From: Minisyncoccia bacterium
GTDB taxonomy: Bacteria; Patescibacteriota; Minisyncoccia; Phycocordibacterales; UBA9973
Direction: 5' to 3'
Length of the DNA stretch: 64,000 nt
Assembly (NCBI GenBank): GCA_965662335.1
Contig: CBFIGQ010000045.1
Coordinates: 1,156-65,155, forward strand
The notes beneath the pieces were generated by a model, which was given only the letters and a program-made list of their open reading frames with translations, had not been told where the DNA came from and made no database searches. Of the stretch, positions 5,929 through 11,460 are shown piece after piece. Numbering within the stretch: position 1 is the stretch's first letter; every line of letters starts with the position of its first letter. Made by a program: the position numbers and the translations under genes.

Positions 5929-6108
5929 TGATTGTGATGTATTACTAACCTTTGCACGAACTTTTTTTGAACAAGAACACTAACGAATTCCGTCACGGCT
6001 CGGATTACCTCGCCGTTGCGCCCTTAGCCCTCATCGCTTTTCATTCTTGTTTTGTTTGGCGGGGGGATTCTTTTTGAAAAGGTATGGCGATGGGGCTTCG
6101 GGCGGGTA
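5929..6108. repeat. IRb-L: ~180-bp inverted repeat, partner of 11281-11460
   Basis: Reverse complement is near-identical to 11281-11460; only 1-2 mismatches seen by eye. Abuts IRa-R with no spacer. Confidence 0.85.
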
Positions 6109-6164
6109 ATTTAATTATATAACAACTTGGAATATAACACAAAGGAATATATCATAGAATATAT

Positions 6165-6386
6165 ATGAATAAGGCGATTTTTTCCAAAGATCATAAATAT
6201 ACTGTGGAACAGCTAAAAAAGGCACGTGCAGAGGCAGGTTTAGACCAAGTTGAGGTAGCAAAGATGCTTGGTAAAACTCAACCGCACATTTCAAAAATAG
6301 AAGCTGGGCAAAGACGACTTGATATTACGCAACTTAAAGAGTTTGCAAAAATTTATAAAAAATCTTTAACCTACTTCATAAAATAA
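6165..6386 (+). CDS. XRE-family HTH protein, probable R-M controller (C) protein
   Basis: 73-aa HTH_XRE fold (...VEVAKMLGKTQPHISKIEAGQRRL...). Sits directly upstream of, and co-oriented with, the putative endonuclease, as in C-R operons. Confidence 0.6.
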   Translation: MNKAIFSKDHKYTVEQLKKARAEAGLDQVEVAKMLGKTQPHISKIEAGQRRLDITQLKEFAKIYKKSLTYFIK

Positions 6387-6532
6387 TTTATGGCACTTTT
6401 TAAAATAAATAACAATATAGTAAAAAAGATTCTTACAAAAGATTTGGACTTGGAAAAAAATCTCCAAGGGCTTTTCGAAAATAATCTTGAAGAAATTTTA
6501 AACATAGTTTTTCTTGCCCATGAATAAATAAT

Positions 6533-7828
6533 ATGTATAAAATTAATTTACAAAAAACCTTCTTTCTTGCACTAGAAATATCGAGTCATTACAATAAAAG
6601 TTACTACAACACAAATGATTTGGTAAAATTGGCAAATCAATATAAATCTGATTTGGTTAGAACAAGAGTTGATAAAAAGGATTATAAATTTCTAGACGAT
6701 ACAAAATTCGGTGGATTACGAGGAAATTTCTCTACCTTGTTAACATTAAAAGGTTTTGTTAAACGAGGAAATAAAATTATACCTTTTTATTCTTTAGGGA
6801 TGGATGGTCGTATTGTAAATGCTGTAAATAATGGCGAGATAATACTTGATTCTTCTGATTTAACAGCTAATACAAAAAACGAGAGATTAAAAAATCTTCT
6901 TGAAAAAGAAGTATTTTTATCAAAGGTTAGGGAGAATCAGGCGCATATAAAAGTAATGCTTGAGAAAGATTCGGGCAAGCTTGGAATTAAAAGAGATAAT
7001 ATTTTTAAAAAAGATTCAGTCGTTGTAACCGAGAAAGGGCAATATTTTTTGAGATGTCTATTAAATAATTTTATAAATAATAATACAATTGAATACAGTT
7101 TATTTAATTACTGGTCAGGTAAGAAAATCATCAAAAAGAACATGCATATATTGATCAGTATTCCAACGATAGATAATTCTTGGGCTGAACTATATGCAAT
7201 TAAATTTGAAGATCTTATAAAAAACAAACCGATGTATTTGATGGTCTCTGTTGATACAAAAAAGTGCATGGATAGATCTGGTAATATTTATAATTTATAT
7301 AGTTTAGAACAAGCAAAGAATGAATTTTCTGATGGAAATGCAAATATAAATGAAAGATTATCTTATAATTGGAAAGATTTAATAAATAAAGAATGTAGTG
7401 ATGAGATTGAAATTCAAAAAGAGGTAAAACAACAGGAAACATGGATTTTTATTGATAAATTTCTACAATGGAAAAAACATTTTTCAATTGATGAAAAAGA
7501 TGTTGTTGATTACATAGTATCTAGTTCTGGTGGATGTGATGTTTTATTGAAATATTCAGGTGGAACAACACAAAAGCTAGAATTAGAACACGACTGGAAA
7601 AATTATATAGATCACAAACATCCTGAAAATAACGCATGGTCTGGTGCTTGGTTATTTGCCGAAGAAGAGTGGAATCCAGATCTAATAATTAAATTGTTTG
7701 AACCGCTAAAGAAAAAACATGGTGATAGAATACCAGATGTCTTCTTGTGCTTCGAAAACGGAGAAAGAAAAGCCTATAGAGCAAATTGGGGTAATAAAAA
7801 TTTCACTGAGCTATCTTTGTCTTTTTAA
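6533..7828 (+). CDS. putative Type II restriction endonuclease (hypothetical, very AT-rich)
   Basis: Positioned as R in a C-R / M-M convergent arrangement. C-terminal PDVFLCFENGERK fits a PD-x8-ExK nuclease motif. No other recognisable domain. Confidence 0.4.
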   Translation: MYKINLQKTFFLALEISSHYNKSYYNTNDLVKLANQYKSDLVRTRVDKKDYKFLDDTKFGGLRGNFSTLLTLKGFVKRGNKIIPFYSLGMDGRIVNAVNNGEIILDSSDLTANTKNERLKNLLEKEVFLSKVRENQAHIKVMLEKDSGKLGIKRDNIFKKDSVVVTEKGQYFLRCLLNNFINNNTIEYSLFNYWSGKKIIKKNMHILISIPTIDNSWAELYAIKFEDLIKNKPMYLMVSVDTKKCMDRSGNIYNLYSLEQAKNEFSDGNANINERLSYNWKDLINKECSDEIEIQKEVKQQETWIFIDKFLQWKKHFSIDEKDVVDYIVSSSGGCDVLLKYSGGTTQKLELEHDWKNYIDHKHPENNAWSGAWLFAEEEWNPDLIIKLFEPLKKKHGDRIPDVFLCFENGERKAYRANWGNKNFTELSLSF

Positions 7829-7829
7829 T

Positions 7830-8576
7830 TTAACTTTTTATATTTAGAACTTTTACTCCATCTATATCTTTTAATCGCTTTTTCATTATTTTAAAGAATT
7901 CTTGATCGTTTTCTATGTTTATAGAATTTCTTTTCATAGAGTCCGCAACTTCTGCTAAAGTCCCGCTACCAGCGAAGCAATCAAGTACTAGATCTTTTTC
8001 GTTAGTAAAAATTCTCATTAAATGTTCAATTACCTTTTTGGGTTTTTGTGTTGGATGTGCTGTTCTTTCTCTTCCCATACAAATTGGTGTTTGAATAAAA
8101 TTATGCATTTCATTTTGCTTTGAAAAGTTAAATGTATAAGATATTTTTTTATTATCAAAACCATGTGTAGCCCACAAAATAGCTTCACATGAAGACAAGA
8201 AACCGTTCTTCCTAATTTGTGGGGCGGGATTTGTTTTGTGCCAAATTATTGTAGCGTGATGTTTAAATCCTAATCTTTCATATATACGCTTTATATCACT
8301 TATATATTCCAATTTTGAAAATACTAAAAGATTTCCATTTTCCTTTAAAATAGGAGTAATCAATTTCAACCATTCTTCGGTAAATTTCAAGTAATCATTG
8401 TTGCTAAAATAATCCCATTTTCCAAAATCGGAAGACCTTGCTTTTCTACCCTTGAGAATCTTGGTATTTTTATTTGCTGTATTATAGGGTGGATCGACAA
8501 TAACAGCATCAATTTTGTTTTTTATTGTTGGCAATACTTTAAACACATCGCCTTTTATTAAATAATGTTTATTCAT
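7830..8576 (-). CDS. DNA amino-methyltransferase (beta class, N6A or N4C)
   Basis: Motif IV DPPYN comes before motif I FAGSGT (beta-class order). HPTQKP motif present. Confidence 0.8.
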   Translation of the reverse strand: MNKHYLIKGDVFKVLPTIKNKIDAVIVDPPYNTANKNTKILKGRKARSSDFGKWDYFSNNDYLKFTEEWLKLITPILKENGNLLVFSKLEYISDIKRIYERLGFKHHATIIWHKTNPAPQIRKNGFLSSCEAILWATHGFDNKKISYTFNFSKQNEMHNFIQTPICMGRERTAHPTQKPKKVIEHLMRIFTNEKDLVLDCFAGSGTLAEVADSMKRNSINIENDQEFFKIMKKRLKDIDGVKVLNIKS

Positions 8577-9963: not shown

Positions 9964-9980
9964 TATGATATTATATCATA
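9964..9980. promoter_or_regulatory. perfect 8-1-8 palindrome TATGATAT-T-ATATCATA, candidate operator for the LexA-MTase fusion
   Basis: Read directly. Lies 2 bp upstream of and abutting the ATG of the fusion gene, and inside the 76-bp divergent intergenic region shared with ORF 10039. Confidence 0.45.
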
Positions 9981-10038
9981 GTAATACCGAAACAAAACCG
10001 AAAAGTTATCCACATGTAAACATAGTAATAAAATTGCA

Positions 10039-10803
10039 ATGAAATTTTTATTTTTAGATGAATTTAAATATGATCACTCTAAAACTCATAAAGTATATGG
10101 TCTGACGGGTGTTGTTATAGATGCACAATATTATCTGTCGTTTAAAGAATCGTTTTCTTCATCTCTTAAAAAATTAGGATGGGACAAGAAACTCGAACTT
10201 AAAGGAAGGTCAATGTTTTCGGCTTCCGGCGACAAGTCTATCTCTGTAGAAAAGAGAGTAAATTTTATGTCTGATGTTGTTGGAATGTCTAAATCAAACT
10301 CTGGAAAAACAGCGAAGATTCATGTTTTTGTTGCGTTGGAAATGTACGAAAAGAAACATACGGAGTATGAGTGCTACAAGAAAAACCTTGAAAAGATCAT
10401 TAAAAAATTACCAAAGGCTCAATCAAAAAAGAAAAGTTTGATTGGGATATTCTACGATGAAAATGATTGTATTGATGCGAGTGATTTCCAGCAAACCATC
10501 GAAAAATTACTTTCTCAAAGATCTTTAAATTTATTTGAATCACCTCTGCCAGTAAGATCTTCTTTAGATAATCCAGGAATCATGTTTGCAGATTATGTCT
10601 GCTATTTTAATCAGAATTTCTTTCAATTATCTAATTTTCGAAAAAATATAAGTGATGAACTTATGATCCTATTGGAAAAGGATGAAAAAAATATTATCAG
10701 TGAAGATGAGAAGAAAAAACTTAGTACTTATATAACAAACTATAGAAAAGAGAGGAAAACAAAAGAACTCATTCTCGCGTTAAAAAAGATAATGTTTGTT
10801 TAA
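10039..10803 (+). CDS. hypothetical protein (possibly DUF3800-like), divergent from the LexA-MTase gene
   Basis: N-terminal FLFLDEF resembles the DUF3800 DE motif. AT-rich like the rest of the cargo. Confidence 0.3.
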   Translation: MKFLFLDEFKYDHSKTHKVYGLTGVVIDAQYYLSFKESFSSSLKKLGWDKKLELKGRSMFSASGDKSISVEKRVNFMSDVVGMSKSNSGKTAKIHVFVALEMYEKKHTEYECYKKNLEKIIKKLPKAQSKKKSLIGIFYDENDCIDASDFQQTIEKLLSQRSLNLFESPLPVRSSLDNPGIMFADYVCYFNQNFFQLSNFRKNISDELMILLEKDEKNIISEDEKKKLSTYITNYRKERKTKELILALKKIMFV

Positions 10804-10804
10804 G

Positions 10805-11245
10805 GGAGCCCCGCTCGCACCCCTCTCGTCCTTGCGAGCGGGGTTTTGCGCACACGCGAACGGGAGGGCGGGTCAAGTGTGCATAGCATTCCGCCTCGGA
10901 CATTTCCGCTATGAGCGTCCATGGCTAAAGGATGAGCGCCGACGATATAAGCAAGGGATAATCTAAAATCTTGAGAAATACTCGGATATGAAAACGAGGA
11001 TGGGGGTTGGCTGAGCCGGTTGGTCGAGCCCTGCCGAGACGAGGCGAAGCTGGGGGAAGGCTTCCTTCCTTCCCCCAAACAGCTGGCGCCCGAGCTCCGG
11101 CACCGCAGTGCCGTAGAGCGAGGAAACGCGCCAAACCTAGACATCTAGGCGCGAGTAGCCCTAGCGGAAATGTCCGAGGCGGATGCCGAGGATGGACTCC
11201 TTTGGTCACGGACGATAGAAAATGGTAAAATGTCCGAGACACCAC
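10805..11245. other. GC-rich ~440-bp non-coding block with many stable hairpins; candidate structured RNA and/or recombination switch
   Basis: Sharp compositional contrast with the AT-rich cargo. Hairpins ccccgctcgca/tgcgagcgggg, gggggaagg/ccttccccc, ggcac-cgca-gtgcc and cctaga-ca-tctagg. ORFs here are low-complexity R/P/G strings. Confidence 0.35.
10890..11185. repeat. 254-bp segment bounded by perfect 21-bp inverted repeats (CCGCCTCGGACATTTCCGCTA / TAGCGGAAATGTCCGAGGCGG)
   Basis: Read directly: 10890-10910 is the exact reverse complement of 11165-11185. A third partial same-orientation copy AAAATGTCCGAGAC lies at ~11226-11240. Confidence 0.7.
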
Positions 11246-11280
11246 TTAGAATTCCGTCGTTTCCTTTTCTTTAAAGGAAA

Positions 11281-11460
11281 CCCGCCCGAAGCCCCATCGC
11301 CATACCTTTTCAAAAAGAATCCCCCCGCCAAACAAAACAAGAATGAAAAGCGATGAGGGCTAAGGGCGGAACGGCGAGGTAATCCGAGCCGTGACGGAAT
11401 TCGTTAGTGTTCTTGTTCAAAAAAAGTTCGTGCAAAGGTTAGTAATACATCACAACACAG
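11281..11460. repeat. IRb-R: inverted copy of IRb-L
   Basis: See IRb-L. Confidence 0.85.

Follow-up and report, generated by a model that had tools for sequence, protein, structure and literature searches.

Several described systems place a site-specific recombinase and its sites within or beside long inverted repeats (IRs). The hin gene lies inside its own invertible segment, and the C segment of P1 is bounded by 0.6-kb inverted repeats with the cix sites at their outer ends. In the yeast 2-micron plasmid, the FRT sites on which FLP acts lie within 599-bp inverted repeats that are kept identical and that split the plasmid into two unique segments. Islands at tRNA genes are represented by the tycheposons, in which tyrosine integrases were found in 910 of 937 elements and a minority encode large serine recombinases (LSRs) (bioRxiv 10.1101/2020.12.28.424599). 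Direct repeats of partial tRNA sequence flank the tycheposons, many of which have replication genes (bioRxiv 10.1101/2020.12.28.424599). Here we describe an island in a 64,000-nucleotide stretch of DNA (the window; contig CBFIGQ010000045.1 of assembly GCA_965662335.1) from a Minisyncoccia bacterium of the Patescibacteriota. The island occupies 4239-11455 of the window, directly 3' of a tRNA-Glu(UUC) gene, and contains an LSR gene bracketed by one pair of inverted repeats (IRa) and a cargo bracketed by a second pair (IRb). We hold with moderate confidence that it is an island of the LSR type whose ~300-bp attachment site, attP (B'-core-A), is carried twice, in inverted orientation, around the recombinase gene.

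We found that the IRb arms (5932-6107 and 11280-11455), located with a repeat finder, are reverse complements of 176 nt that lie 5172 nt apart and, when aligned with MAFFT, agree at 175 of 176 positions with a lone mismatch at 6018/11369. A 176-nt repeat with a single mismatch cannot have arisen by chance. The IRa pair (4235-4353 and 5819-5937) is 93% identical and is followed by a 10-nt indel and then by ~20 further paired nt. The original prediction, made by eye from the sequence, had described near-identical repeats around the cargo that were far more similar than the IRa pair, and had cautioned that exact alignment might lower their identity. Alignment left one mismatch (99% against 93% for IRa) and shifted the repeat ends by 1-5 nt. 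The same prediction had IRb-L abutting IRa-R with zero spacer, which did not hold: the two arms overlap by 6 nt and have TTGTGA at 5932-5937 in common. The same hexamer, inverted (TCACAA), forms the outer end of IRa-L (4235-4240) and of IRb-R (11450-11455), and successive cores alternate in orientation (TCACAA, TTGTGA, TCACAA). The GC content is 25-33% in 6200-10700, 57-60% in 10800-11400 and 42-57% within the arms, in line with the earlier description of an AT-rich interior with GC-rich arms and a GC-rich block.

From left to right, the locus reads tRNA, core, A arm, LSR gene on the minus strand, inverted A arm, inverted core, B arm, cargo, inverted B arm, core and host flank. The tRNA-Glu(UUC) gene (4166-4238, plus strand) was identified with ARAGORN and Rfam, and its T-arm and acceptor 3' end would make up the left half of attB; TCACAA at 4235-4240 takes in its last two acceptor-stem bases and its discriminator. 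IRa-L, the tRNA-side A arm (4235-4370, plus; 116 nt with a 20-nt inner block), is matched by IRa-R (5792-5937, minus), the A arm 5' of the recombinase gene and within its 5' untranslated region. IRb-L, the recombinase-proximal B arm (5932-6107, minus), holds a long hairpin, HP1 (6106-6018), followed by 3' hairpins, a site arm (5981-5938) and the core, and IRb-R, the distal B' arm (11280-11455, plus), has the same order (HP1 at 11281-11369, 3' hairpins, site arm at 11406-11449, core copy 3 at 11450-11455). Judged from this layout, the three sites can be read as an attL-like junction of tRNA and A at core copy 1 (4235-4240, plus), an inverted, intact attP-like site A'-B centred on core copy 2 (5932-5937, minus; TTGTGA on the plus strand) and an attR-like junction of B' and flank.

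The recombinase gene (4375-5763, minus; 463 conserved codons) encodes the Pfam domains Resolvase (PF00239, 6e-20), Recombinase (PF07508, 4e-13) and Zn_ribbon_recom (PF13408, 8e-12) together with an N-terminal YARKST catalytic motif. The protein distantly resembles SPbeta SprA/YokA and CcrB, with weak but significant matches, and its identity to any characterised LSR is very low. The reading frame continues through IRa-L, whose A arm overlaps its 3' end, and the whole tRNA-Glu to 4177, giving 528 aa, and homologues are also ~528 aa long. This length probably reflects read-through of a GC-rich arm and tRNA that lack stop codons, which makes the true C-terminus uncertain.

Relatives with the window flanks or cargo were traced by exact-protein look-ups with ORF165 (an open reading frame, ORF, at 3597-4094), the 254-aa cargo ORF and the helix-turn-helix (HTH) protein of the cargo; look-ups with the window OmdA and TrxB proteins returned no record. 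Related loci are designated L with a number. Five empty-site contigs (L161-L164 and L166) carry ORF165, tRNA-Glu and OmdA with nothing in between, and the identity of such contigs to the window is 99.9% over 1-4238 and 99.5% over 11702-20000. Since the empty-site strains lack both modules, the whole of 4239-11455 is one strain-variable insertion of 7.2 kb. The junctions are exact: the empty site reads ...GTAGGG TCAC CCAGAGGTATGAAAATATC (in L161 the junction ends ...gtagggTCACccagagg), the window attL reads ...GTAGGG TCAC AATCAGATAC and the window attR reads ...TAATACA TCAC AACACAGGTATGAAAATATC. The same cargo with its arms, 98-99.9% identical, was found in at least four other chromosomal contexts and is always joined directly after TCAC. 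It lies at tRNA-Glu(CUC) genes of other hosts in L171-173, L183 and L184, next to a recombinase module 91-94% identical to that of the window, and is joined to two further right flanks in L178 and L002. Four distinct right flanks thus begin immediately after TCAC, which is common to attB, attL and attR. These junctions point to A-LSR-A'-B-cargo-B' as the mobile unit, with a crossover that would fall inside TCAC.

One option raised by the original prediction was a mobile cassette bounded by terminal inverted repeats (TIRs) and delivered next to the recombinase module. The segment is indeed mobile, but it moves with the recombinase module, which is always present where the left end of the cargo is visible; an orphan module was seen only in a different lineage (L053). 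No direct repeat flanks 5932 and 11455, as a transposon-type target-site duplication would (the hexamer at the left end is inverted), and family searches of the Pfam/NCBIfam type found no transposase among the cargo proteins. Because a target-site duplication is absent and because the outer 46 nt of IRb are a recombinase-site arm that lies upstream of every member, we read IRb not as a TIR but as carrying, in its right arm, an attR-type junction with native tRNA-downstream DNA. The locus has the full LSR domain set, a presence/absence polymorphism with an empty attB and precise short-core junctions, as LSR integrative elements do. It departs from them in one respect: where a single attP would be split with no further copy, an intact inverted B'-A site stays here (5932-5937), and likewise in essentially all relatives.

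The host flank F (11456-11705, plus) contains an OmdA-family gene (11463-11705) that lies directly 3' of tRNA-Glu in the empty-site strains. Over the 250 nt with the OmdA gene that adjoin the island on its right, the window (11456-11704) and L161 (8225-8473) are only 93.2% identical, while the flanks on either side are 99.5-99.9% identical. The island may have arrived together with flanking DNA via homologous recombination.

We propose that a single ~300-bp attP repeat is made up of IRa (half A) and IRb (half B). IRb-L would meet IRa-R with a shared 6-mer because both are halves of one intact attP copy. We infer a circular intermediate with two attP copies, which in the excised circle would part the 1.5-kb recombinase segment from the 5.2-kb cargo segment. 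Integration would take place at the tRNA-Glu 3' end, attB consisting of the T-arm/acceptor and the downstream flank, with the crossover inside TCAC. Use of the attP copy 3' of the recombinase gene would split it into attL (tRNA-A, 4235) and attR (B'-flank, 11455), and the other copy would stay whole at 5932-5937, between the recombinase gene and its promoter/leader. The intact copy could thereby hold the recombinase to its regulated leader, and possibly to its operator, after integration. [quoted passage not shown] Frequent recombination within the molecule, or gene conversion, may keep the arms identical and would flip the segments as well.

Homologues of the recombinase number in the thousands and are nearly all from Patescibacteria, with at least 580 confirmed contig matches in genomes and at least 590 in metagenomes. 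The family counts given here rest on 160 fetched loci among more than 1,100 matches in all. Full-length IRa pairs are present in 107 of the 160 loci (median length 118 nt, median identity 99.1%, 42 pairs perfect), and a tRNA 3' end abuts the downstream arm in 117, with 22 tRNA species represented. All loci whose sequence covers the region 5' of the recombinase gene share a conserved site there, TTGTTCGAAATAAGTTCGCGCAAAGG-N11, core, N3-GAAACTTC, or in short form GTTCGCGCAAAGG-N11-core-N3-GAAAC. The core is identical at all three sites of one locus and co-varies with the tRNA, being for example TCACA for Glu, CCACA for Ala, GCACA for Gly and Arg, and TCCGCA for Ser. A distal inverted B copy is present in ~25 loci, where the repeats abut IRa exactly as in the window, and it ends against terminator-like host DNA; a terminator-like sequence is what normally follows a tRNA gene. 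The A arms measure 116 nt and the B arms 140-273 nt, and the enclosed cargos are diverse and range from 0.13 to 8.9 kb (L024 and L079 are nearly cargo-less). A literature search found no description of this architecture with an inverted, duplicated site. The family is large and apparently undescribed, and apparently a new architectural form of serine-integrase genomic island.

This breadth bears on the concern that the repeats stem from mis-joined, related contigs. Many related contigs end in or beside the repeats, where assemblers struggle, and this speaks for an artefact. Against it, the same architecture with locus-specific arms recurs in more than 100 assemblies from differing projects and assemblers, including the closed chromosome CP060229 (L061), and the junctions are exact to the nucleotide. 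Since the paired-repeat layout is found in more than 100 independent assemblies, we exclude an assembly artefact for it and regard chimerism at this locus as extremely improbable. A phage or provirus origin was also considered and dropped: a scan of IMG/VR with the recombinase gave no relative, and no phage genes were found in the cargos examined.

Further loci of the family show variations on this design. In L008, L014, L015 and L016 the arm downstream of the recombinase abuts a 3' end, GGGTTCGATTCCCGCCATCTCCA, that looks by eye tmRNA-like rather than tRNA-like, and the family may also target ssrA. An orphan module in L053 (11844-14429) contains an HTH gene and a 486-aa gene within 206-nt inverted repeats (90% identical) that have B-like arms. 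A second, more divergent element type of like design occurs in L014 (18770-20422) and L074 (6396-8038), where near-perfect inverted repeats of 120 nt enclose a ~1.4-kb gene. A tRNA 3' end adjoins this unit at one end, and a B'-like arm (TTCGAAnTTnGTCCAAT...) lies at the opposite end.

Arm evolution is concerted: the two IRa arms show 100% identity to each other within L002 and 99.1% within L171, while between elements their identity is ~90%. Both IRb arms of the window carry A5974, C5984 and T6025, positions at which G, T and C stand in the arms of L171 (both), L175 and L178, and both IRb arms of L002 share a further set of changes. The second option of the original prediction, in which recombination between the IRb copies inverts the segment and homogenises them, is therefore borne out as to homogenisation, and inversion is a plausible, though unproven, cause. 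The identities are also mosaic. The recombinase modules of the window and L171 differ by ~6% (94% identity) up to 5922, the outer 90 nt of both B arms contain three differences, and 6026-6525 contain none. At either end of the cargo, the outer part of the B arm therefore goes with the recombinase module, and the inner part goes with the cargo. Tracking of the outer arms is explained most simply if B'-A-LSR-A'-B were contiguous in the circle, or if the distal arm was converted afterwards.

Such decoupling, with the cargo 99.2% and the recombinase 94% identical between the window and L171, could alternatively reflect modular cassettes, in which an A...A' recombinase unit and a B...B' cargo unit are separate circles with palindromic sites that insert serially at the tRNA. 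The resulting array, tRNA-A-LSR-A'-B-cargo-B'-flank, would be integron- or SCC-like but with inverted, not direct, boundaries. Highly diverse cargo behind a constant recombinase module fits this idea, as do the IR-bounded module of L053 with HTH gene and cargo near a tRNA-Ser and no adjacent recombinase, the consecutive IR-bounded segments of L074, and the almost empty B...B' pairs of L024 and L079. We nevertheless consider serial cassettes unlikely. In essentially all loci the recombinase comes with the B'-proximal 46 nt, also where HP1 and the distal copy are lacking (L042), and B thus belongs to the recombinase unit and not to a cassette. Furthermore, neither module is present at the empty site, the two are found as the same pair at several tRNA-Glu genes, and only one possible recombinase-only junction was seen (L034). 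The window/L171 identity switch lies inside the B arm (~6025) and not at the core, which speaks for homologous recombination and against a site-specific exchange of modules. Orientation alternates from one site to the next, whereas a cassette array would have directly repeated sites, and serial insertion would need attP-type x attR-type reactions, which are unknown for LSRs.

We next consider the B arm and its surroundings as structured elements. By its position between the core and the divergent promoter of the HTH gene, the B arm is predicted to be the 5' leader of the recombinase gene. Its homology between the two copies stops exactly at an AT-rich, promoter-like region (6108-6164) between leader and HTH gene, in which consensus promoter matches on both strands constitute weak evidence, and relatives have TATAAT-containing equivalents. 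The outer 46 nt of the arm are the conserved site arm, kept even in loci that have no second copy, and the inner part holds HP1. Leader structure was judged by single-sequence folds and arm-divergence statistics. Among 22 distinct leaders, HP1 has a median stem of 21.5 bp, and its stem arms are 59% identical between loci yet still complementary; the large loop contains a conserved C-rich motif, UCCCCCCGCCAAAC...GAAUGGAA. The sole IRb difference, G6018, is private to the proximal arm and breaks a pair at the foot of HP1. A wobble test gave 19 G-U against 30 A-C among more than 400 pairs, with no strand bias, and HP1 is thus a candidate for function as RNA or as single-stranded DNA, either strand fitting the test. 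RNAalifold found no consensus structure on raw MAFFT leader alignments because stem lengths differ between lineages.

At the other end of the cargo lies a conserved multi-hairpin element of ~290 nt, the GC-domain (10888-11185, plus), which corresponds to the GC-rich block of the original prediction and is closed by a perfect 22-bp helix (10890-10911/11162-11183). Across lineages, the closing helix is 20-26 bp long and its changes are compensated in every lineage; the domain has an AGUA/GA internal loop and covarying inner hairpins, and 17 pairs are changed on both sides among nine sequences. The stretch 10803-11456 has a folding z of -7.6. The adjoining stretches 10806-10846 and 11258-11281 were noted together with the GC-domain, and the former is a terminator-like 14-bp GC hairpin with a U run, on the plus strand after the 254-aa gene, as predicted by folding. 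The GC-domain always lies upstream of a B' arm and points to B' and the core. It sits just inside the distal arm in 15 loci irrespective of cargo and directly upstream of the recombinase leader in four. Rfam searches at the gathering threshold, and at E<=10 over 4100-12000, returned only tRNAs and chance matches. RNase P, tmRNA and a group II intron were ruled out as identities of the GC block by Rfam and by sequence reading. By folding, the GC-domain and HP1 are each candidates for a new structured RNA tied to the recombination site. A guide resembling a bridge RNA was found to be unsupported, as by eye no leader segment besides the core varies with the tRNA. The distance of GTTCG/GTTTC-like motifs is ~14 nt in A, 18 in T and 24 and 36 in B', and the motif is absent from F; these distances are suggestive of attB-type versus attP-type spacing. 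We sought dyad symmetry or a shared half-site register among T, A, B' and F and found no common register.

Orientation data bear on a further possibility, a dedicated switch in which IRb and the recombinase reversibly flip the 5.2-kb segment (and IRa the recombinase segment), with mobility being secondary. Inverted repeats and a nearby site-specific recombinase, which an invertible segment requires, are present, and the recombination cores lie at the outer ends of the repeats, adjoining the serine recombinase. The recombinase gene lies within its own IR-bounded segment, as hin does, and the concerted evolution of the arms is what a switch would produce. Two classes of orientation exist among relatives (15 distal, 4 proximal), in addition to L181, and the recombinase segment is flipped in a few contigs (L005, L039, L055, L114, L115 and L154). 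The flipped contigs could be assembly-path artefacts; we do not take them as proof of inversion because the repeats exceed common assembler k-mer sizes and paths through them are ambiguous. Every assembly of the window cargo that reaches a junction has the window orientation, except L181. In different genomes, the attR arm is on the GC-domain side in the window, L171-173, L178 and L002, and on the HTH side in L181, where the HTH-side arm reads GTTCGCGCAACTGATATAATTAGT, then TCAC, then the terminator of a host gene, with no recombinase within 5.7 kb of the junction. Since L181 is joined through the other arm, either arm can be the chromosomal junction; integration via the other attP copy and inversion of the cargo explain L181 equally well.

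The original prediction had also suggested that inversion would swap the end that faces the recombinase. The leader and host-flank context would change in this way, but the restriction-modification (R-M) genes would not be rewired, as the arms are non-coding and identical and the genes lie wholly inside, so that a flip alters no reading frame, no R-M coding sequence and no promoter linkage. Furthermore, the gene encodes a full LSR that includes a zinc ribbon and a coiled-coil region, not a small invertase, and integration is a real activity, as seen from the insertion polymorphism. We therefore regard a dedicated switch as quite improbable.

Several observations weigh against a doubled attP as we propose it. 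No circle or excised form was found, no contig joins the GC-domain through B'-A to the 3' end of the recombinase gene, and IMG/VR yielded nothing. To our knowledge, canonical LSRs join only attP x attB, and inversion by attP x attP or attP x attL/R would be unexpected; no candidate emerged for a directionality factor, which would reverse the reaction. If the two attP copies were equivalent, equal integration isomers would be expected, but almost all loci have tRNA and LSR in one relative orientation, and in five of six contexts of this cargo the attR arm is the one on the GC-domain side. With just 93% identity in the IRa pair of the window, homogenisation cannot be continuous. The 4-5 nt that follow TCAC on its right are not the same in the empty-site strain as in the window. 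A distal B copy is missing from ~40% of those loci that have 6-10 kb of sequence upstream, and the orphan module of L053 lies 40 nt after a tRNA-Ser(GCU) with no recombinase beside it. A bolder interpretation would make these islands a distinct element class: a two-segment flip-flop that isomerises and integrates via either attP copy, with a T-loop-reading recombinase, a core that alone picks among more than 20 tRNA/tmRNA genes, and a GC-domain and HP1 RNA that help control recombination, for example by picking the attP copy or by substituting for a protein directionality factor. We consider this whole combination doubtful.

The cargo itself comprises five genes. An XRE-type HTH regulator (6165-6386, plus; Pfam HTH_3) is divergent from the recombinase leader; an HTH gene occupies the equivalent position in L013, L018, L063 and L008 and is the conserved partner of the leader in many relatives. 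Since PADLOC control-protein matches of the HTH protein are weak only, it is not necessarily an R-M C protein. It is followed by a 431-aa ORF (6533-7828, plus) that has no match in Pfam, NCBIfam or PADLOC and is a restriction enzyme candidate by position alone. A type II beta-class N4/N6 DNA methyltransferase (7830-8576, minus; PF01555, 2e-40; PADLOC MTase_II, 2.7e-60) adjoins a LexA-N4/N6 DNA methyltransferase fusion (8583-10013, minus; PF01726, PF00717 and PF01555; TIGR00498 lexA, 6.7e-52). The LexA part of the fusion is complete, with a winged-helix DNA-binding domain and an S24 self-cleaving peptidase, and this domain combination could make the protein a damage-responsive or self-regulating methylase. 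The 254-aa ORF (10039-10803, plus), which has no family match, served as the exact-match probe for further cargo copies. Overall, the R-M label given to the cargo by the original prediction is plausible, but its endonuclease part is unproven, and reading the 431-aa ORF as a restriction enzyme is unsupported, as it has no family match.

Most copies of this cargo have one gene more, a 303-aa DUF5655 gene between the HTH gene and the 431-aa ORF (L171 3468-4233, L174 and L181). The window cargo is without it (the insertion point is at 6526), and in L185 a DUF3644 gene replaces the 254-aa ORF. Elsewhere in the family, the cargo includes transporters, glycosyltransferase-like proteins and an OLD-like ATPase, among others. 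R-M-like genes are thus ordinary cargo of the island, and the family appears to be a main vehicle for accessory genes in Patescibacteria, R-M systems included.

Further observations concern the right flank. Before tRNA-Ser, the empty-site strain carries ~970 additional bases, which hold a 157-aa ORF and a PNPOx gene. The tRNA-Ser(CGA) gene (window 11860-11947; L002 3758-3845; also L010, L046 and L073) varies in orientation and in the side of tRNA-Glu/island on which it lies, which hints at local rearrangements in this tRNA cluster. Between trxB and ftsZ, a 30-nt inverted repeat at 12911-13025 (83% complementary, 55 nt apart) is probably a terminator or operator.

Patescibacteria (the candidate phyla radiation, CPR) have tiny genomes in which gene exchange is little understood, and the family described here is abundant among them. 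Its architecture, with attP present twice in inverted orientation, one copy split and the arms kept identical, raises questions on the control of direction and site. If it is true that the enzyme reads the T-loop and that the core sets the target, these proteins would be a naturally retargetable integrase family for genome engineering. For annotation, island boundaries in these genomes are marked by paired long inverted repeats beside tRNAs, which also account for the frequent breaks between contigs.

Compared with LSR elements such as Bxb1, A118/LI, SPbeta (SprA) and SCCmec (Ccr), the island has the same protein architecture and the same few-nt conservative insertion, with no target duplication and a recoverable empty site. 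Unlike them, it keeps a second, intact, inverted attP, and its recombinase gene and cargo are each bracketed by inverted repeats; its arms measure 116 nt and 140-273 nt against a site of ~50 bp, and the family targets the 3' ends of many tRNA/tmRNA-like genes rather than one locus. With the H, G and C segments of Hin (Salmonella), Gin (Mu) and Cin (P1), the island has in common IR-bounded DNA, a crossover near the repeat ends and a serine recombinase inside or adjacent. Those recombinases are small, depend on an enhancer and on Fis and do not integrate, whereas here a full LSR is encoded and the structure is inserted at a tRNA gene. The putative circle resembles the 2-micron plasmid in having one long pair of inverted repeats that each hold a site, with one of the two segments encoding the recombinase. 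FLP, in contrast, is a tyrosine recombinase, and the 2-micron plasmid replicates autonomously and does not integrate; we found no replication genes and no circular form for the island. Like tycheposons, members of this family are small cargo islands at the 3' ends of several tRNAs and, here by eye, of tmRNA-like genes, in streamlined uncultured bacteria; the cargo of tycheposons includes defence and niche-adaptation genes. Tycheposons differ in enzyme and boundaries, and no inverted attachment-site duplication has been described for them, but they are the nearest ecological analogue of the island family.

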